Positions 34,519-55,096 are shown, counted from the stretch's first letter. The stretch: DNA of 64,000 nucleotides from a virus (IMGVR_UViG_3300032308_002078:16073-80072), one strand, 5' to 3'. Program-made: numbers and translations. Notes: generated from the letters alone by a model not told the origin.

Positions 34519-35652
34519 ATGGAAAATAATAATAGTGTATGTTTTGTAGCTCGTATTAACGAGATTAAACCAATTGAAGGTGCAGATAACATTGAGTTAG
34601 GTGTTATTGGTGGTTGGAATTGTATTATTAAGAAAGGAGAATACACCGAAGGTGATTTAGTTGTAGTAGCAACTACTGATGCTGTTATACCTCAAGAATT
34701 ATCTGATTCAATGAATGTAACTAATTATTTGAGAAAAGGTCAAAGAGTTAGAACAGTTAAATTAAGAGGTGTATATAGTGAGTGTTTAATTATCCCTATT
34801 AGTATCGCAGCTAAAGCAACTGGTTTTGCTAATACTAAGTTTGATGAAGGTGATGATATGATGGATACATTGAAAATTTTTAAGTACGAACCACCAGCAG
34901 TTGAAGTACAGCTAGCTTCAGGTCGTAAAATTAGATATAGTCAAAATCCAAACTTTGGTATTTACTACAAGTTCCCAAACATTAAAAACGTTAAAGGAAT
35001 GTTTAATGAAGAAGATGTTGTAGAAGTATCTCGTAAGATTCACGGTACTAATGCTCGTTATGGTATTGTTAAGAAAAACAAACTTAGTTTGTGGGATAAA
35101 GTAAAACGTTTATTTGGAGACAAATGGATTGAATATGAATACGTTTATGGTAGCCATAATGTGGAGAAAGGATCTGATTCACAAGGTTTTTACGATACTG
35201 ATGTTTGGAGAACAATTGCTGATAGATACAACATTAGAGAAAAGCTGTGGAAATTCTTTAAACACACTAAAGATCTATATAATACTAGTGAGGGTATTAT
35301 TATCTACGGAGAAATTTATGGCCCAGGTATTCAAAAGAACTATGACTATGGTTTAAAAGAAATTGAGTATGCTGGTTTTGATGTTACTATTAACGGTGAA
35401 TACCAACCGACTTCTAGAAGTTATGTAATTCATGATAACTTAGGGCTTAGTTATGTACCTGTATTAGAATTTAATGTTTGGTCTGAAGATTTACTTACTA
35501 AATATACCTTTGATAAAATTGAAGGCACTAAAGTACCACATGAAGGAGTAGTAGTTAAATCAACTGATGGTGATAGACGTAAAGTTGCAAAGGTAATTAA
35601 CCCAGACTATCTAATTTATGGAGAAAAAAATAACGTAGGAGATTCACACTAA
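34519..35652 (+). CDS. RNA ligase, Rnl2 family (nucleotidyltransferase)
   Basis: Motif I RKIHGTNAR (KxHGxN, as in T4 Rnl2 EKIHGTNFS); motif IV-like YGEIYGPGIQKNYDYG (T4 Rnl2 FGEFAGPGIQKNVDY). Confidence 0.7.
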   Translation: MENNNSVCFVARINEIKPIEGADNIELGVIGGWNCIIKKGEYTEGDLVVVATTDAVIPQELSDSMNVTNYLRKGQRVRTVKLRGVYSECLIIPISIAAKATGFANTKFDEGDDMMDTLKIFKYEPPAVEVQLASGRKIRYSQNPNFGIYYKFPNIKNVKGMFNEEDVVEVSRKIHGTNARYGIVKKNKLSLWDKVKRLFGDKWIEYEYVYGSHNVEKGSDSQGFYDTDVWRTIADRYNIREKLWKFFKHTKDLYNTSEGIIIYGEIYGPGIQKNYDYGLKEIEYAGFDVTINGEYQPTSRSYVIHDNLGLSYVPVLEFNVWSEDLLTKYTFDKIEGTKVPHEGVVVKSTDGDRRKVAKVINPDYLIYGEKNNVGDSH

Positions 35653-50805: not shown

Positions 50806-50891
50806 GCTACTGTGGCGGAATAGGTAGACGCGTTGGACTTAAAATCCAATGGACAGTAATGTTCGTACCGGTTCGATTCCGGTCAGTAGTA
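50806..50891 (+). tRNA. tRNA-Leu (anticodon TAA), class II
   Basis: Acceptor GCTACTG/CAGTAGT; D-arm TGGCGGAATAGGTAGACGC; anticodon loop CTTAAAA; long variable arm; T-loop TTCGATT. Confidence 0.7.
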
Positions 50892-50924
50892 CAAAAAATA
50901 AAAAATTATATATTTATATCAAAA

Positions 50925-51115
50925 TGAAAAAAGTATTATTTATCGCCGCTATTTTCGCTTTGGCTTCTTGCTCAAACGAAACTACTACCTCTTCAACCGA
51001 TTCAACATGTGTTGATTCAACTTGTTCTGATTCATTTAACACTGATTCTCTTATCCAAATCACAGAAGCACATGCTGATTCTTTGCATACAGAGATTATG
51101 GAGTTGAAAAAATAA
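50925..51115 (+). CDS. small lipoprotein embedded in tRNA array
   Basis: MKKVLFIAAIFALASC lipobox; Ser/Thr/Asp-rich mature region; track ORF 50849 starts inside tRNA-Leu. Confidence 0.45.
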
Positions 51116-51126
51116 TAACTCTAAAC

Positions 51127-51209
51127 GCCGAGATCGCATAGCGGTTGATTGCACCTGACTTGTAATCAGGTTCCGTAAGGACACGCCAGTTCGAATCTGG
51201 CTCTCGGCT
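51127..51209 (+). tRNA. atypical class II tRNA with anticodon loop CTTGTAA (reads as UGU)
   Basis: Acceptor GCCGAGA/TCTCGGC; 3-bp D-stem; AGCGGTTGATT D-loop like the Tyr and Ser genes here; anticodon stem CCTGA/TCAGG; 14-nt variable arm; T-loop TTCGAAT. Confidence 0.45.
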
Positions 51210-51270
51210 CAAATGTAGTCTTCAATTAACTCCCCGACCCAATTAAAATGTTAGTTGGAGGCTACTCCCC

Positions 51271-51345
51271 GCGGGTGTCGTATAATGGTTATTACACTAG
51301 CCTTCCAAGCCTGTGATGTCAGTTCGATTCTGTCCACCCGCTCCA
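51271..51345 (+). tRNA. tRNA-Gly (TCC)-like with weakened anticodon stem; encoded CCA
   Basis: Perfect acceptor GCGGGTG/CACCCGC; loop CTTCCAA identical to bacterial Gly-UCC; anticodon stem CTAGC/GCCTG pairs at only 3 of 5 positions. Confidence 0.45.
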
Positions 51346-51370
51346 AAAAGAAAGAAAAAAATTAAATATA

Positions 51371-51420
51371 GTTTGGCGATTTAAAATTCCTTACATATAT
51401 TTATCACATATTAAAACACA
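51371..51420 (+). promoter_or_regulatory. promoter-like motif inside tRNA array
   Basis: GTTTGGCG ... TACATATATTTATCACATATTAAAA, a variant of the recurrent GTTTGGC(T) / TTATATTTA motif. Confidence 0.4.
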
Positions 51421-51554
51421 TTAAAACATGAAACATTGTAGATCATATCAGTTTAGTCTTAAAGCCGCTTGGATGAATCGTCCGGTGTCTGAGGATATTA
51501 AATTGATAGGGCTTATGATGTGATGTTTTTAAAGACATATTGAAACACAAAGTA

Positions 51555-51584
51555 AGCCCGATTCACAAGATCGGGCATTTTTTA
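51555..51584 (+). terminator. rho-independent terminator
   Basis: GCCCGAT tcacaa GATCGGGC hairpin plus T6. Confidence 0.65.
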
Positions 51585-51586
51585 TG

Positions 51587-51605
51587 TTCTTTGACGTATG
51601 AGAAA
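51587..51605 (+). repeat. 19-nt exact direct repeat TTCTTTGACGTATGAGAAA (second copy at 53086-53104)
   Basis: Both copies sit 5-7 nt upstream of the first tRNA of a sub-array (Phe at 51610; Leu-TAG at 53110); contains TTGACG. Confidence 0.55.
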
Positions 51606-51609
51606 AATT

Positions 51610-51682
51610 GCGACGGTAGCAAAGATGGTCAATGCACTGGACTGAAAATCCAGCCATGCAGGTTCGAGTCCTGCCCGTCGCA
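51610..51682 (+). tRNA. tRNA-Phe (GAA)
   Basis: Acceptor GCGACGG/CCGTCGC; anticodon stem-loop CTGGA CTGAAAA TCCAG. Confidence 0.7.
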
Positions 51683-51691
51683 CAAATAAAC

Positions 51692-51767
51692 AGCGTAGTA
51701 GAGGAGTCTGGTTTATCTCATCTGCTTTGGGAGCAGAGGCACGCCGGTTCGAATCCGGCCTACGCTA
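51692..51767 (+). tRNA. tRNA-Pro (TGG)
   Basis: Acceptor AGCGTAG/CTACGCT; anticodon stem-loop TCTGC TTTGGGA GCAGA. Confidence 0.7.
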
Positions 51768-51775
51768 CAAAATAT

Positions 51776-51849
51776 GACTTCGTAGCTCAATAGGTTAGAG
51801 CACCTCACTTTTAATGAGGGGGTTTCGAGTTCGAGTCTCGACGGGGTCA
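51776..51849 (+). tRNA. tRNA-Lys (TTT)
   Basis: D-arm TAGCTCAATAGGTTAGAGC; anticodon CCTCA CTTTTAA TGAGG. Confidence 0.7.
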
Positions 51850-51855
51850 CAATTT

Positions 51856-51931
51856 CTTTCCTTCGCTTAGTTGGTTTTAAAGCATCTCTTTTACACAGAG
51901 AAGATCGTTGGTTCGAATCCAGCAGGAAAGA
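51856..51931 (+). tRNA. tRNA-Val (TAC)
   Basis: Acceptor CTTTCCT/AGGAAAG; anticodon TCTCT TTTACAC AGAGA. Confidence 0.65.
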
Positions 51932-51940
51932 CAAATAAAT

Positions 51941-52022
51941 GCCAGTATCGCATAGCGGCAATTGCTGGGGACTGTAAATCCCCTCTCTTTGGAGTTCGTA
52001 GGTTCGAGTCCTGCTGCTGGCA
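51941..52022 (+). tRNA. tRNA-Tyr (GTA), class II
   Basis: Anticodon GGGGA CTGTAAA TCCCC; long variable arm; acceptor GCCAGTA/TGCTGGC. Confidence 0.7.
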
Positions 52023-52029
52023 CTAAAAT

Positions 52030-52103
52030 GGAGATATAGCTCAATTGGTTAGAGCGCCTGCCTGATACACATAAGGTTATAGGTTCGAGTCCTATTTTCT
52101 CCA
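52030..52103 (+). tRNA. tRNA-like gene, possibly Ile (GAT), with non-pairing anticodon stem
   Basis: Canonical acceptor, D-arm (TAGCTCAATTGGTTAGAGC) and T-arm; anticodon region CCTGC CTGATAC ACATA does not form a stem. Confidence 0.3.
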
Positions 52104-52112
52104 CAATTAAAT

Positions 52113-52185
52113 GGTGTATGTAACTCAGAGGAAGAGTACTCGCTTGTGACGCGAGAAGTCGGGATTTCGAAACTCCTCATATACC
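52113..52185 (+). tRNA. tRNA-His (GTG) with G-1
   Basis: 8-bp acceptor G-GTGTATG/CATATAC-C; anticodon CTCGC TTGTGAC GCGAG. Confidence 0.65.
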
Positions 52186-52191
52186 CTAAAA

Positions 52192-52275
52192 GGAAAATGA
52201 CCCTTGATGGTGATAGGGCTTGCCTGCTAAGCAATGTGTACCTTCGGGTATTTGGTTCGATTCCAACTTTTTCCG
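52192..52275 (+). tRNA. tRNA-Ser (GCT), class II
   Basis: 3-bp D-stem CCC/GGG; anticodon TTGC CTGCTAA GCAA; variable arm hairpin TACC ttcg GGTA; discriminator G. Confidence 0.65.
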
Positions 52276-52296
52276 CTATGTAAAAAATACTTATAA

Positions 52297-52759
52297 AAAA
52301 CAGATTATGAACTTCAAGACCCTATCAAACAGAAAAACAGTTGACTTAGTTGACTACATTAAAGCGTATTTAAACGACAACCCCAACACCGAATTGTTAG
52401 TTGGGTGCGACTCGCAAAACTATGCTTATAACACAACTTATGCCACTGTAGTAGCGCTTTATAAGCCGAAGGGTGGTGCGCATGTTTTATTCAATAAAGA
52501 AGTTTTACCTCTAGAAAAAGTAAGACAAGTACGTTTAATGAATGAGGTTTGGAAGTCTGTTGAAGTAGCAGAATTACTTAAAAATTCAGGTTTACCTCAA
52601 GTTAAATATATTGATATAGACATCAACCCAGACAAAAAATATAAATCAAATGAAGTATTAAGAGCGGCAGTTGGTTTAGTTGAAGGTATGGGTTATAAAG
52701 TTAGATACAAATCATTAGGCGTTATGGCAACATACGCTGCTGATATGCTAGTAAAATAA
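52297..52759 (+). CDS. hypothetical protein between tRNA sub-arrays (start revised to MNFKT)
   Basis: Track ORF 52220 starts inside tRNA-Ser; ATG 52297 follows it; 154 aa. Confidence 0.4.
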
Positions 52760-52763
52760 CAAT

Positions 52764-52836
52764 TGTTCTTTCGTCCAACGGATTAGGACACTTCGCTACG
52801 AACGAAGAAATAGGGGTTCGAATCCCTTAAGAACAA
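52764..52836 (+). tRNA. tRNA-Arg (ACG)
   Basis: Acceptor TGTTCTT/AAGAACA; anticodon CTTCG CTACGAA CGAAG. Confidence 0.65.
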
Positions 52837-52842
52837 CTAAAA

Positions 52843-52912
52843 GTTCAGGTTGGTTTAGGAAGCCGGGTAGTCTGCAAAACTACTGAAGTAGGTTCGATTC
52901 CTACCTTGAACT
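52843..52912 (+). tRNA. tRNA-Cys (GCA)
   Basis: Anticodon GTAGT CTGCAAA ACTAC; short D-arm. Confidence 0.55.
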
Positions 52913-52919
52913 CAAATAC

Positions 52920-52990
52920 GCGAGTGTGGTGAAATGGTATCATAATGGTCTCCAAAACTATTGTTGAGGGTTCGAATCCTTCCACTCGTG
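52920..52990 (+). tRNA. tRNA-Trp (CCA)
   Basis: Acceptor GCGAGTG/CACTCGT; anticodon ATGGT CTCCAAA ACTAT. Confidence 0.6.
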
Positions 52991-53020
52991 CAAAAGAAAG
53001 TTAAAAAGTTTTAAAAACAG

Positions 53021-53068
53021 GTTTGGCTTTCATAAGACATGATGTTATATTTATGTCATAATAAAAAT
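53021..53068 (+). promoter_or_regulatory. conserved host-type promoter motif driving second tRNA sub-array
   Basis: GTTTGGCTTT-N14-GATGTTATATTTATGTCATAATAAAAA, near-identical to copies at 8783, 36670 and 49861; no ATG follows, tRNA-Leu starts about 40 bp downstream. Confidence 0.55.
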
Positions 53069-53109
53069 AATAAGAATTAAAAAGTTCTTTGACGTATGAG
53101 AAATTAAAT

Positions 53110-53191
53110 GCCGAGGTGGTGGAAATGGTAGACACACCGGTCTTAGAAACCGGAGCGTAACAGCATGCGAGTTCGACTCTCGCCCACGGTA
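53110..53191 (+). tRNA. tRNA-Leu (TAG), class II
   Basis: D-arm TGGTGGAAATGGTAGACAC; anticodon CCGGT CTTAGAA ACCGG; long variable arm. Confidence 0.65.
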
Positions 53192-53196
53192 CAAAT

Positions 53197-53318
53197 AGTC
53201 AAATGGCGGAATGGTAAACGCTGTGTATGCTCGATTAGACACCAGTACGAGGCAATGAAAATCTTGCACGTAGGGCTTAGAAAACTGGTTATAGGTTCGA
53301 ATCCTGTTTTGACTACCA
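53197..53318 (+). tRNA. unusually long (about 120 nt) tRNA-like gene A; encoded CCA
   Basis: Acceptor AGTCAAA/TTTGACT; Leu-like D-arm TGGCGGAATGGTAAACGC; T-arm ATAGG TTCGAAT CCTGT; about 65 nt between D-arm and T-arm including a CCAGT...ACTGG hairpin. Confidence 0.35.
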
Positions 53319-53372
53319 AGTTAACCCACTAAGACTAGAAACGGGTGACAGCTCGGAAAGTACGAGCAATAT

Positions 53373-53478
53373 AGTCAGGTGGCGGAAGTTATCGGTAGAG
53401 TGATGATTGATTGGAAGACATTAAGTTGACACCCACTCAATATGTAGCTTAATGCAGGTTCGAATCCTGTTCTGACTA
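53373..53478 (+). tRNA. unusually long (about 106 nt) tRNA-like gene B, paralogue of A
   Basis: Same ends as A (AGTCAGG TGGCGGAA ... GGTTCGAATCCTGTTCTGACTA); internal 7-bp stem CATTAAG/CTTAATG enclosing 22 nt. Confidence 0.35.
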
Positions 53479-53528
53479 CGGAGAATGGTTAGTACTAAAC
53501 AACAAAATCGAAAAGGAAGTACAAATAC

Positions 53529-53603
53529 GCCTTCATAGCTCAGTGGTAGAGCAAGCGGCTGTTAACCGCTGGGTCGTAGGTTCAAATCCTGCTGAGGGCG
53601 CCA
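53529..53603 (+). tRNA. tRNA-Asn (GTT); encoded CCA
   Basis: Anticodon AGCGG CTGTTAA CCGCT; acceptor GCCTTCA/TGAGGGC. Confidence 0.7.
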
Positions 53604-53609
53604 ATAAAT

Positions 53610-53681
53610 GGCCCGTTCGTCTATCGGTTAGGACACCAGGTTTTCAACCTGTAAAGACGAGTTCGATTCTCGTACGGGCTA
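53610..53681 (+). tRNA. tRNA-Glu (TTC)
   Basis: Anticodon CCAGG TTTTCAA CCTGT; acceptor GGCCCGT/ACGGGCT. Confidence 0.65.
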
Positions 53682-53694
53682 CAAAAAAATAAAT

Positions 53695-53769
53695 AGCGGG
53701 GTAGAGCAGAGGTAGCTTGCAAGGCTCATAACCTTGAGGTCGCTGGTTCGAGTCCAGCCCCCGCTACCA
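53695..53769 (+). tRNA. tRNA-Met (CAT) copy 1; encoded CCA
   Basis: Acceptor AGCGGGG/CCCCGCT; anticodon CAAGG CTCATAA CCTTG. Confidence 0.65.
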
Positions 53770-53779
53770 AAAAATAACT

Positions 53780-53857
53780 AGCGGGGAACTAGAGCTGGTG
53801 CACTGACGAGTCTCATAAGCTCGGACTAGGTGGGTTCGATTCCCACCCCCGCTACCA
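53780..53857 (+). tRNA. CAT-anticodon tRNA copy 2 (initiator Met, elongator Met or Ile2); encoded CCA
   Basis: Same acceptor AGCGGGG/CCCCGCT; anticodon CGAGT CTCATAA GCTCG; D-arm and variable region differ from copy 1. Confidence 0.55.
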
Positions 53858-53864
53858 AATAAAT

Positions 53865-53935
53865 TACCCTCTCGTCTAACGGCAGGACAAGTGGTTTTGG
53901 GCCACTGAATCGGAGTTCGAATCTCTGGGGGGTAA
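53865..53935 (+). tRNA. tRNA-Gln (TTG)
   Basis: Anticodon AGTGG TTTTGGG CCACT; acceptor TACCCTC/GGGGGTA. Confidence 0.6.
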
Positions 53936-53942
53936 CAAAAAT

Positions 53943-54015
53943 GGGCTGTTGGTATAGTCGGCTAACACGATTGCCTTGCACGCAGTAGTCCCCAGTTCGA
54001 ACCTGGGACGGTCCA
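53943..54015 (+). tRNA. tRNA-Ala (TGC) with G3:U70
   Basis: Acceptor GGGCTGT/ACGGTCC gives the G3-T70 wobble identity pair; anticodon ATTGC CTTGCAC GCAGT. Confidence 0.65.
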
Positions 54016-54027
54016 CAAAAATAATTT

Positions 54028-54102
54028 GGTCTATTAGTGTAGTGGTTAACACGCCTCACTGTCTATGAGGTAGCCTCGGTTCGAATCCGTGATAGACCGC
54101 CA
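54028..54102 (+). tRNA. tRNA-Asp (GTC); encoded CCA
   Basis: Perfect acceptor GGTCTAT/ATAGACC; anticodon CCTCA CTGTCTA TGAGG. Confidence 0.7.
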
Positions 54103-54110
54103 ACATATAC

Positions 54111-54198
54111 GGAAGTTTGGCAGAGTTGGCCGATTGCGCTAGTCTTGAAAACTAGAGATGCCGAAAGGTATCCGGGGGTTCGAATCCCTCAGCTTCCG
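54111..54198 (+). tRNA. tRNA-Ser (TGA), class II
   Basis: Anticodon CTAGT CTTGAAA ACTAG; long variable arm GATGCCGAAAGGTATC; discriminator G. Confidence 0.7.
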
Positions 54199-54308
54199 CA
54201 CCTTAAAACCAGTTCAGGTCCGTGATCAAGGGAGGCCTGTTCTTCTCGTGCAAGAAAGAAATCACGTTAAATCTCCCCACGCTAGGTGGTATTGGTGACC
54301 TAGCACTT

Positions 54309-54380
54309 GCCTCCATAGTTAAATGGATATAACAGGAATCTTCTAAGTTCTAGTTCGTGGTTCGATTCCACGTGGAGGTA
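54309..54380 (+). tRNA. tRNA-Arg (TCT)
   Basis: Acceptor GCCTCCA/TGGAGGT; anticodon GGAAT CTTCTAA GTTCT; T-arm CGTGG TTCGATT CCACG. Confidence 0.6.
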
Positions 54381-54435
54381 TAAAAAATTTCTCATACAGC
54401 TTGGATATTTAAAAAAACATTATTATATTAACATT

Positions 54436-54873
54436 ATGAATTTGACAAAAGCACTAAAACACAAAAAGAAGCTTGTTAAACAAGCAGATGAAGCGTTTAT
54501 GCGTTTCCAAAGGTATAATTCTCAAAATAAAGAGAATGTAGATAAAGGTTATGACCCAGAAACTGCTTACCGTAAATGGATTGCTTTAACACAAGAGTTG
54601 ATTACTCTAAAAACTAAAATCCATAATGCAAACGCTCCTATTGCAAATAAAATTTTCCGTTTGGGTGAATTAAAGAATTTGGTTTCTCGTTTACGTAATA
54701 TTGATACTAAAAAAGGACTTATTAGAGAGCATCGTTCAGCAGATTCTATTCCTGTTGAATATGTAGCATACATGGATTTGTTTACTAAAGATAATCAAAT
54801 TTTTAATTGGGAACAAGAAATTGAAACCATTCAAGAAGAGATTGAGGCATTTAATGCCATCACAAAGATATAA
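54436..54873 (+). CDS. hypothetical protein
   Basis: 145 aa; follows TTATATTAACATT promoter motif. Confidence 0.35.
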   Translation: MNLTKALKHKKKLVKQADEAFMRFQRYNSQNKENVDKGYDPETAYRKWIALTQELITLKTKIHNANAPIANKIFRLGELKNLVSRLRNIDTKKGLIREHRSADSIPVEYVAYMDLFTKDNQIFNWEQEIETIQEEIEAFNAITKI

Positions 54874-55096
54874 CCAATTTAAAGAGTAAAATTAGATTAG
54901 TAGCGCCTTGTACAAATCTGCTTGCGGATTTATACATACCCTAGATAGATAACAAATCTATCCTCATAAGACTGATGCTTGGATATTGATTTTGATAAAT
55001 GCCTTAAGATTTAAAATTCAAAATTTAATATTGGGAAAACTCAAATCTTAAAACTTTTCAGCGAACATTTAATTTTACTCTACTTTGGTTTTTTTT

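Follow-up and report, generated by a model that had tools for sequence, protein, structure and literature searches.

A predicted threonine tRNA with class II architecture in a phage tRNA array and its relatives in phages and bacteria

The gene at 51127-51209 and its fold

The window, by which we mean the whole 64,000-nucleotide (nt) stretch of viral DNA analyzed here (IMGVR_UViG_3300032308_002078:16073-80072), carries at positions 51127-51209 of its + strand a gene that combines a threonine anticodon with the long variable arm of class II tRNAs, and that we read as a tRNA-Thr(UGU). The gene, GCCGAGATCGCATAGCGGTTGATTGCACCTGACTTGTAATCAGGTTCCGTAAGGACACGCCAGTTCGAATCTGGCTCTCGGCT, is 83 nt long through its discriminator U73 and encodes no CCA. 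An initial annotation had proposed, among other readings, a threonine isoacceptor built on a class II scaffold, and ARAGORN returned tRNA-Thr(tgt) at 51127-51210. The gene also matched the Rfam tRNA model RF00005 at 57.6 bits (gathering score 29, E = 1.8e-12) over model positions 1-71 of 71, and its minimum free energy (MFE) fold had z = -3.45.

In the alignment to this covariance model, all parts of the molecule lie on the + strand. The 5′ strand of the acceptor stem, GCCGAGA (51127-51133), pairs with TCTCGGC (51202-51208), includes the pairs G1-C72 and C2-G71, and is followed by U8 and C9. The D arm (51136-51152) has a 3-bp stem, GCA/TGC, and an 11-nt loop, TAGCGGTTGAT, with A14, G15, G18, G19, and A21. 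The anticodon arm (51154-51170) consists of five perfect pairs, CCTGA/TCAGG, around the 7-nt loop CTTGTAA, in which the anticodon TGT (UGU, positions 34-36; 51161-51163), assigned by both ARAGORN and the Rfam alignment and followed by A37, would read ACA and perhaps further ACN codons. Compared to the class I consensus, 11 nt are inserted, which brings the variable region to 14 nt (51171-51184; TTCCGTAAGGACAC, or UUCCGUAAGGACAC as RNA), which can be written U-UCC-GUAA-GGA-CAC: one unpaired nt, a 3-bp stem (TCC/GGA in the DNA, UCC/GGA in the RNA), the loop GTAA, and three unpaired nt, the last of which is C48. The T arm, GCCAG-TTCGAAT-CTGGC, occupies 51185-51201, and the discriminator U73 is read from the sequence at 51209.

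With a 7-bp acceptor stem, a D arm, a 5-bp anticodon stem closing a 7-nt loop, and a T arm, the gene has the cloverleaf of the Rfam tRNA family, and its variable region, longer than 10 nt and forming a stem-loop, gives it class II architecture. Reviews admit only Leu, Ser, Tyr, and Sec to class II in bacteria (PMC7609411, PMC11559606, PMC9976931); with its Thr-type anticodon and acceptor end, the gene falls outside these textbook isotypes. The 3-bp D stem, the 14-nt variable arm, and the 7-nt loop CTTGTAA with UGU at positions 34-36 had all been described in the initial annotation, and the alignment bears them out. The likeness it had seen between the D region and that of the tRNA-Tyr gene at 51941 also holds (TCGCATAGCGGTTGATTGCA in the Thr gene and TCGCATAGCGGCAATTGCT in the Tyr gene). 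It had further considered that the anticodon stem might fold differently and leave GUA as the anticodon; in the structure-aware Rfam alignment, no anticodon-stem register or alternative pairing sets GUA at positions 34-36, and the UGU register is kept.

Relatives in phages and on bacterial chromosomes

Viral contigs were scanned with two patterns. The first, a D arm plus UGU loop, yielded 23 loci, nearly all with a tRNA(UGU) of 83-86 nt; the second, CTTGTAA-N18-29-GGTTCGAATCC, whose spacing implies a variable region of 10-21 nt, yielded at least 120 further loci. In these loci ARAGORN found at least 130 tRNA(UGU) genes, 120 of them 80 nt or longer, which represent at least 110 distinct sequences, about 100 of them with a long arm (variable regions of 10-21 nt). 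When the anticodon arm was fixed as CCTGA-CTTGTAA-TCAGG, the long form was present in 28 viral loci and the 4-5-nt form in 13. In loci picked for unrelated reasons, Thr(UGU) genes were long in 2 of 22 and 8 of 53 cases, and the long-arm form may account for about a tenth of phage Thr(UGU) genes. Across the family, variable regions of 5, 7, and 10-12 nt have no stem, and those of 13-21 nt have one. Among the matches listed, the long form is the sole Thr tRNA in 21 of the 28 viral arrays with at least 15 tRNAs. The window gene itself recurs with 100% identity in two related contigs (L007 and L015), and in nearer relatives with the same acceptor stem the variable stem TCC/GGA has become TCT/AGA, a compensatory change.

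Cultured carriers include about 100 T5-like phages of E. coli and Salmonella with an 87-nt copy (Lindwurm, HildyBeyeler, fp01, and others), the Aeromonas phages PX29 and Ah1 with an 85-nt copy, and the Sinorhizobium phiM12 group with an 84-nt copy, whose 12-nt variable region lacks a clear stem. In Lindwurm, the long form sits at the array position of the 75-nt tRNA-Thr(UGU) of T5. About 100 GenBank phage records already label genes of the long-arm family plain "tRNA-Thr." These deposited genes share UGU, G1-C72, C2-G71, the 3-bp D stem, and the long variable region with the window gene, to which they are 73-79% identical; the T5-like copies differ in having A73 and an encoded CCA. Our full-text searches, which took in only a minority of subscription papers, turned up neither an account of class II or long-arm tRNA-Thr nor one of Eremiobacterota tRNAs, and as far as we have seen, this type of gene has been annotated yet has gone unremarked.

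For the analysis of covariation, we aligned 35 members of one layout (24 from phages, 9 from Eremiobacterota, and 2 from other bacterial contigs). Standard pairs fill 99.5% of the cells, double-sided changes occur in 20 of the 23 pairs, and the covariation score is 0.857, compared to 0.19 for shuffles and 0.10-0.14 for slid partners. All five helices of the family covary, the stem of the variable arm included: its three pairs (seen as GC, UA, CG, and AU), the three D-stem pairs, the five anticodon-stem pairs, and acceptor pairs 3-7 all do so. The acceptor pairs G1-C72 and C2-G71 are invariant, as are A14, G15, G17, G18, and A22 of the alignment. The final C of the variable region is invariant together with G15, which is consistent with a G15:C48 Levitt pair. 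Judged from these patterns of change, the structure of the family is under selection.

The long-arm pattern was also scanned against one genome per GTDB species. Among the matches listed, it recurred in metagenome-assembled genomes (MAGs) of Candidatus Eremiobacterota and Vulcanimicrobiota, on contigs of up to 3.5 Mb. These copies are 82-88 nt long and follow the scheme GCCGACG-UA-GCC...GGC-A-(stem)-CUUGUAA-(stem)-ACCCGAAAGGGCAC-(T arm)-CGUCGGC-U. The long-arm Thr(UGU) gene of Eremiobacterota lies on the opposite strand, 0.1-5 kb from a Tyr(GUA)-Gly(UCC)-Thr(GGU) cluster (L144, L145, L157, L205, L235, L237, and others), which at locus L145 is followed by tRNA-Trp, NusG, and ribosomal protein L1 (rplA). 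This neighborhood is the classical thrU-tyrU-glyT-thrT/secE-nusG-rplKA region, except that Thr(UGU) is on the opposite strand. In E. coli and in Balneolaceae (L215, where it is a 73-nt class I tRNA), Thr(UGU) comes first in the operon, unlike in Eremiobacterota. Because the neighboring Thr(GGU) is class I, one threonyl-tRNA synthetase (ThrRS) must serve both architectures in Eremiobacterota. A further copy, in a MAG of the Spirosomataceae (Bacteroidota), has a 5′ half almost identical to that of the window gene and lies among housekeeping genes, next to G6PD, RpiB, and response regulators; no phage genes surround it. Many other pattern matches on genome contigs, from Bacteroidota and other phyla, were rejected as chance matches or 3′ ends resembling those of transfer-messenger RNA (tmRNA), not tRNAs.

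Bacterial MAGs also hold class II tRNAs of other types with UGU. Ser-type genes (GGAGGGA..., G73) lie at L167 4398-4485, L206 535-623, and L209 4159-4248, and Leu-type genes (A73, D arm GCGGAAUUGGUAGACGC) at L185 6175-6261, L194 350-436, and L217 1650-1736; the MAGs belong to Litorilinea, an Eubacteriales, Rhodobacteraceae, and Rhodobacterales. Both types look clearly unlike the long-arm Thr family and are candidates for Thr-to-Ser or Thr-to-Leu mistranslation.

Amino-acid identity, codon meaning, and rival readings

Threonine identity in E. coli depends on G1-C72, C2-G71, G35, and U36. The bacterial identity rules applied here follow PMC9976931 and those reported by Hasegawa et al. 1992. The window gene has all four elements, as the initial annotation had noted. 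In the literature, the Thr determinants are the acceptor-stem pairs plus the anticodon, C2-G71 is an antideterminant for seryl-tRNA synthetase (SerRS), and G73 is a mark of Ser against the leucyl- and tyrosyl-tRNA synthetases (LeuRS and TyrRS) (PMC9976931). We counted these positions in the distinct viral sequences from the scanned loci, among the matches listed. The 97 long-arm tRNA(UGU) sequences have G1-C72 in 94 cases, C-G at 2-71 in 96, and U73 in 80 (A73 in 16), and the 27 class I Thr sequences of the same loci have G1-C72 in 25, C-G at 2-71 in 26, and U73 in 22 (A73 in 5). G1-C72 is also found in 30 of 34 Tyr and 66 of 72 Ser sequences; of all 34 Tyr sequences, 25 have G-C at 2-71 and 32 have A73, and of all 72 Ser sequences, 66 have G-C at 2-71 and 56 have G73. 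Among 82 Leu sequences, 39 have G1-C72, 51 have C-G at 2-71, and 79 have A73.

The window gene departs from the Tyr type (GUA, with G34 and U35, and A73) in having UGU and U73; from the Ser type (G73, G2-C71, a long variable stem, and about one unpaired 3′ nt) in having U73, C2-G71, 3 bp, and three unpaired nt; and from the Leu type (A73, a Leu-type D loop, and an arm with no unpaired 5′ nt, 4-5 bp, and one unpaired 3′ nt) in having U73 and another geometry. Based on the acceptor-end counts and the identity rules, the gene therefore carries the Thr identity set and lacks those of Tyr, Ser, and Leu.

The frequency of ACA, which the initial annotation had put forward as a check, was determined in 42 open reading frames (ORFs) of the window, where ACA makes up 414 of 979 Thr codons (42%). 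The phage thymidylate synthase, ThyA, has 10 ACA codons. Three of them encode T52, T73 (in the GDTN motif), and T196, which are Thr in 100% of 119 homologues, T52 and T73 being Thr also in the printed alignments of PDB thymidylate synthases; most of the remaining ACA positions are Thr in 78-93% of homologues. The phage genome is written with ACA as threonine, and a phage tRNA that inserted another residue at ACA would damage the phage's own proteins.

We propose that the window gene encodes a working tRNA-Thr(UGU) whose class II body has an arm of Tyr-type geometry and which the host ThrRS charges, and we give this reading a probability of roughly 85%. The fold, the family's conservation and covariation, the Thr-type signature of the acceptor end, and the use of ACA for Thr in the phage genes are direct observations; with the position of the long form as sole Thr tRNA in arrays and the Eremiobacterota copies, they lend strong support to the threonine isoacceptor that the initial annotation had listed among its options. 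The tRNA would be transcribed within the co-directional phage array and then processed, and a host enzyme would add CCA. The host ThrRS would charge it through G1-C72, C2-G71, G35, and U36, while U73 and C2-G71 would disfavor TyrRS, LeuRS, and SerRS. Once charged, it would read ACA, and possibly other ACN codons, as threonine on the ribosome, serving as the only Thr tRNA of the array in a 32% GC genome rich in ACA. On this reading, recoding is not involved.

Several points weigh against this proposal. We infer from sequence that the gene is expressed, that ThrRS charges the product, and that ThrRS, EF-Tu, and the ribosome tolerate the long arm. Because the search patterns fixed them, the loop and T-loop columns of the alignment cannot vary, and detection by ARAGORN combined with a filter for 7/7 acceptor pairs favors well-paired sequences. 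Class I and class II Thr(UGU) genes stand together in 3 of the 28 large viral arrays, which would be redundant if the two were equivalent. Moreover, the window represents 64 kb of a genome of roughly 155-166 kb, and a canonical Thr tRNA could lie elsewhere in it. Within the 64-kb window, ARAGORN and Rfam found no second tRNA with a Thr anticodon, in line with the earlier remark that the array has no conventional tRNA-Thr. Nor is a canonical tRNA-Thr hidden among the two extra Rfam hits: a Ser(GCU) gene occupies 52191-52275, and a tRNA-like RNA with Leu-like features occupies 53197-53315.

That the tRNA instead mistranslates or recodes, its class II body being recognized by TyrRS, SerRS, or LeuRS and ACA being read as Tyr, Ser, or Leu, is in our view very unlikely. 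SerRS and LeuRS do disregard the anticodon and depend on class II features (PMC7609411; PMC9976931), Ser-type and Leu-type tRNAs with UGU do occur in bacterial MAGs, and the geometry of the variable arm equals that of Tyr. However, C2-G71 is the SerRS antideterminant, the discriminator is U73, where Ser has G73 and Leu and Tyr have A73, and G34 and U35, which TyrRS needs, are absent; the variable stem of 3 bp with three unpaired 3′ nt is likewise unlike those of Ser and Leu. The prevalence of ACA among Thr codons, its use at invariant Thr positions of ThyA, and the way in which the family fills the Thr slot of complete arrays argue in the same direction. The initial annotation had also entertained a Tyr-derived tRNA that misreads ACA or reads a four-base codon, having noticed that the loops CTTGTAA and CTGTAAA differ, as strings, by one T inserted and one A lost. 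That a 1-nt insertion in its anticodon loop turned tRNA-Tyr into a frameshifting or four-base decoder is, to our mind, scarcely credible: the loop has the canonical 7 nt, not the 8 nt of a quadruplet decoder, and is flanked by five perfect pairs; overall identity to the Tyr gene reaches only 58%; and the anticodon stems are unrelated (CCUGA in Thr, GGGGA in Tyr), which leaves the likeness of the loops a coincidence of strings. CUUGUAA is also the loop of class I Thr(UGU) genes, such as those of T5, L005, and L215, and the misreading variant is countered by U73 and by the lack of any special similarity to Tyr.

A decaying or non-functional pseudogene left over from duplication within the array could be suspected, since the Ile(GAT) gene at 52030 of the same array is probably decaying, its anticodon stem largely lost, and since the window Thr gene encodes no CCA. 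We regard this as most improbable. All stems of the Thr gene are perfect, the sequence is identical in L007 and L015, and relatives further away show compensatory changes; it is also the only Thr tRNA of the array, and the family is conserved in very different phages and bacteria.

The window gene can be set beside several known systems. Canonical class I tRNA-Thr(UGU) (the E. coli thrU type, 75 nt in T5) shares with it CUUGUAA, G1-C72, C2-G71, U73 or A73, and the ACA role, and tRNAT(UGU) of T5 has the same 3-bp GCA/UGC D stem and, in T5-like phages, the same array position as the long form; class I tRNA-Thr has a variable region of 4-5 nt, however, whereas that of the window gene has 14 nt and a covarying 3-bp stem. 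According to Saks et al. 1998, a tRNA-Arg(UCU) reportedly became a Thr(UGU) tRNA by a change of anticodon. Yeast mitochondrial tRNA-Thr(UAG) is derived from tRNA-His (PMC7609411). These remolding cases show that Thr identity readily follows the anticodon and that a tRNA body can switch isotype; unlike in these cases, no recent recruitment is visible in the long-arm Thr family, which is old and widespread. Finally, class II mistranslators with switched anticodons are known, among them the nematode nev-tRNAs, allo-tRNAs, and tRNASer or tRNALeu with foreign anticodons. All of these (allo-tRNAs are mentioned in PMC7609411) likewise join a class II body to the anticodon of a normally class I amino acid, but they retain the Ser or Leu identity of acceptor and discriminator, whereas the acceptor end of the window gene is Thr-type.

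The array, the origin of the long arm, and long arms on other isotypes

The 26-gene tRNA array extends over 50806-55171 (+) and comprises 24 ARAGORN genes and a Ser(GCU) gene not called by ARAGORN, together with two tRNA-like RNAs. It is co-directional and covers all 20 amino acids if the window gene is counted as Thr. The missed gene (52191-52275, +) is a class II tRNA-Ser(GCU) with the loop CTGCTAA and a long variable arm, and was returned by Rfam as a sub-threshold, tRNA-Sec-like hit of 35.6 bits. The "Ser(tga)" that ARAGORN called at 52030-52104 (+) is in fact the Ile(GAU) gene of the array, with the loop CTGATAC. Its anticodon stem is CCTGC/GCAGG in one relative (L013) and CCTGC/GCATG in two others (L015 and L007); in the window, two additional G-to-A changes give ACATA and have nearly destroyed the stem, so the gene is probably decaying. 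The two tRNA-like RNAs, at 53197-53315 (119 nt) and 53372-53478 (+), combine a good acceptor stem (AGTCAAA/TTTGACT) and A73 with a T arm and a Leu-like D arm, and carry about 45 surplus nt mid-molecule. In L015 the first is kept, its acceptor stem changing compensatorily (AA to GG opposite TT to CC); in L007 it has been deleted. Both are reminiscent of RNAs in the tRNA region of phage T5 that bear the annotation "tRNA-like stable RNAs of unknown function." Within the array, 52220-52759 (+) codes for an RNase H-like protein (PF04308, DUF458-type), which is conserved in that place in the related contigs L001, L011, L007, and L015.

The window has 32% GC and every long ORF on its + strand, and it also codes for tail-fiber-like proteins and the thymidylate synthase. 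A ThyA protein identical to that of the window occurs on metagenomic contigs of 154 and 166 kb, and the same array is found on the IMG/VR contigs L007, L015, and L013 at 73-90% identity; among deposited phage genomes, the window has no close relative. Directly after the array, at 55213-57105 (+), lies the gene of a 630-aa protein with a cohesin domain and a type IX secretion system (T9SS) C-terminal sorting domain (Por_Secre_tail), an indication of a Bacteroidota host. At 34519-35652 (+) the window encodes an Rnl1-type RNA ligase (phrog_968, E = 3e-60), of the class by which T4 repairs anticodon-nuclease damage, and this suggests that the phage faces tRNA-cleaving host defenses.

The Tyr-type architecture claimed in the initial annotation stands as far as the geometry of the variable arm is concerned, but this geometry does not establish descent from Tyr. 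The modal arm of the family (one unpaired nt, a 3-bp stem, a 4-nt loop, and three unpaired nt) is also the phage Tyr mode; the corresponding values are 1, 6 bp, 4, and 1 in Ser and 0, 4-5 bp, 4, and 1 in Leu. The tRNA-Tyr(GUA) gene of the array (51941-52022, +) has a D arm similar to that of the window Thr gene and the same variable-arm geometry, with A73 and its unrelated anticodon stem. Bacterial tRNA-Tyr shares the 3-bp D stem and the arm layout and differs by GUA, A73, and, mostly, G2-C71 in phages, against UGU, U73, and C2-G71 in the window Thr gene. The overall identity of the two window genes is lower than that of the Thr gene to Leu(UAG), Pro, or Lys. By D arm, no isotype was consistently nearest in within-locus comparisons over 50-odd loci, and the same 3-bp GCA/UGC D arm is found in the class I Thr gene of T5 and in a Gly(UCC) gene of a Cellulophaga phage. 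Overall identity and D-arm comparisons rule out a recent duplicate of Tyr with an indel. Like the overall identity, the shared D arm, the lack of a consistently nearest isotype, and the existence of stemless and stemmed length intermediates speak against descent from the neighboring Tyr gene. A Thr tRNA with a short D stem whose variable loop grew stepwise is a source no less probable than a captured Tyr body.

Long arms are found on other class I isotypes as well; they account for 72 of the 758 distinct tRNAs in the Thr-selected loci, among the matches listed. In viral loci (L002-L142 and L284-L400), such tRNAs have stem-loop arms of 13-20 nt and keep their own discriminators, with examples for Asn(GUU) (G73), Cys (U73), Lys (A73), Gly (U73), Met/fMet, Val, Gln, Glu, His, Ile, and Pro. 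No long-arm Ala or Arg was seen in these viral loci, and no Phe in the Thr-selected loci. A dedicated viral scan gave at least 111 class II Asn(GUU) genes, 101 of them distinct, which keep G73 and U1-A72, and the T5-like phage Lindwurm has an 83-nt Asn gene as well. A control scan with the Phe loop returned mostly Ser(UGA) genes and chance matches, along with nine long Phe genes.

The long arm of the window tRNA-Thr may be neutral, or it may be of use in the conflict between phage and host over tRNAs. It could be an adaptation that allows escape from a tRNA-targeting defense or toxin recognizing class I tRNA-Thr, or that marks the tRNA as "self" against phage-induced degradation of host tRNAs, a role that we consider rather unlikely. 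In its favor, phage tRNAs are known to neutralize tRNA-cleaving defenses, and variable loops are a documented site of conflict; Retron-Eco7/PtuAB and Septu cut tRNA-Tyr in its variable loop, and the T5 copy, owing to its different loop, resists. The toxSAS FaRel2 has tRNA-Thr and tRNA-Gly among its targets, and the tRNAs that co-precipitate with it are mostly of type I (PMC11559606). In phages, other class I isotypes commonly come in long-arm versions with their own discriminators, and the window encodes a tRNA-repair ligase of the Rnl1 type. On the other hand, FaRel2 selects by acceptor pairs that are still present in the window tRNA, Eremiobacterota have this architecture on their chromosomes in what appears to be a housekeeping role, where counter-defense is not needed, and the stemless intermediates of 7 and 10-12 nt look like drift; an adaptive role is a plausible hypothesis. 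Two further links were dropped. The PARIS (AriB) system, considered as targeting Thr and Asn, is described in a paper that makes no mention of tRNA-Thr or tRNA-Asn, and bacterial Schlafen, considered as a class II-specific tRNase, is not relevant, its reported cleavage being of class I Lys and Met.

More broadly, and tentatively, long arms on class I isotypes (Thr(UGU), Asn(GUU), Cys, Lys, Gly, Met, and Val) might be a recurrent and selected feature of phages, a disguise or self-mark against tRNA-targeting defenses that keeps the identity elements and takes a Tyr-like geometry, with class II tRNA-Thr forming a fourth, undescribed bacterial class II family (Eremiobacterota). This we put forward as a possibility that is open to considerable doubt.

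What emerges is a conserved, covarying, and widespread predicted threonine tRNA with class II architecture, present in many phages, including T5-like coliphages that are tractable in the laboratory, and on the chromosomes of one phylum. Its interest rests on the size and spread of the family, the chromosomal copies in Eremiobacterota, and the parallel long-arm isotypes. How tRNAs switch class has been an open question ever since class II tRNA-Tyr proved to be confined to bacteria. Should ThrRS indeed charge the long-arm tRNA, ThrRS, EF-Tu, and the ribosome would accept a long arm on a class I isotype, and the series of variable regions of 4-5, 7, and 10-12 nt (stemless) and 13-21 nt (with a stem) would represent living intermediates of class switching. 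Such genes should in that case be provided for in annotation pipelines and isotype models. Phages have parallel long-arm tRNAs for Asn, Cys, Lys, and Gly, which suggest a broader phenomenon that may connect to tRNA-targeting immunity.

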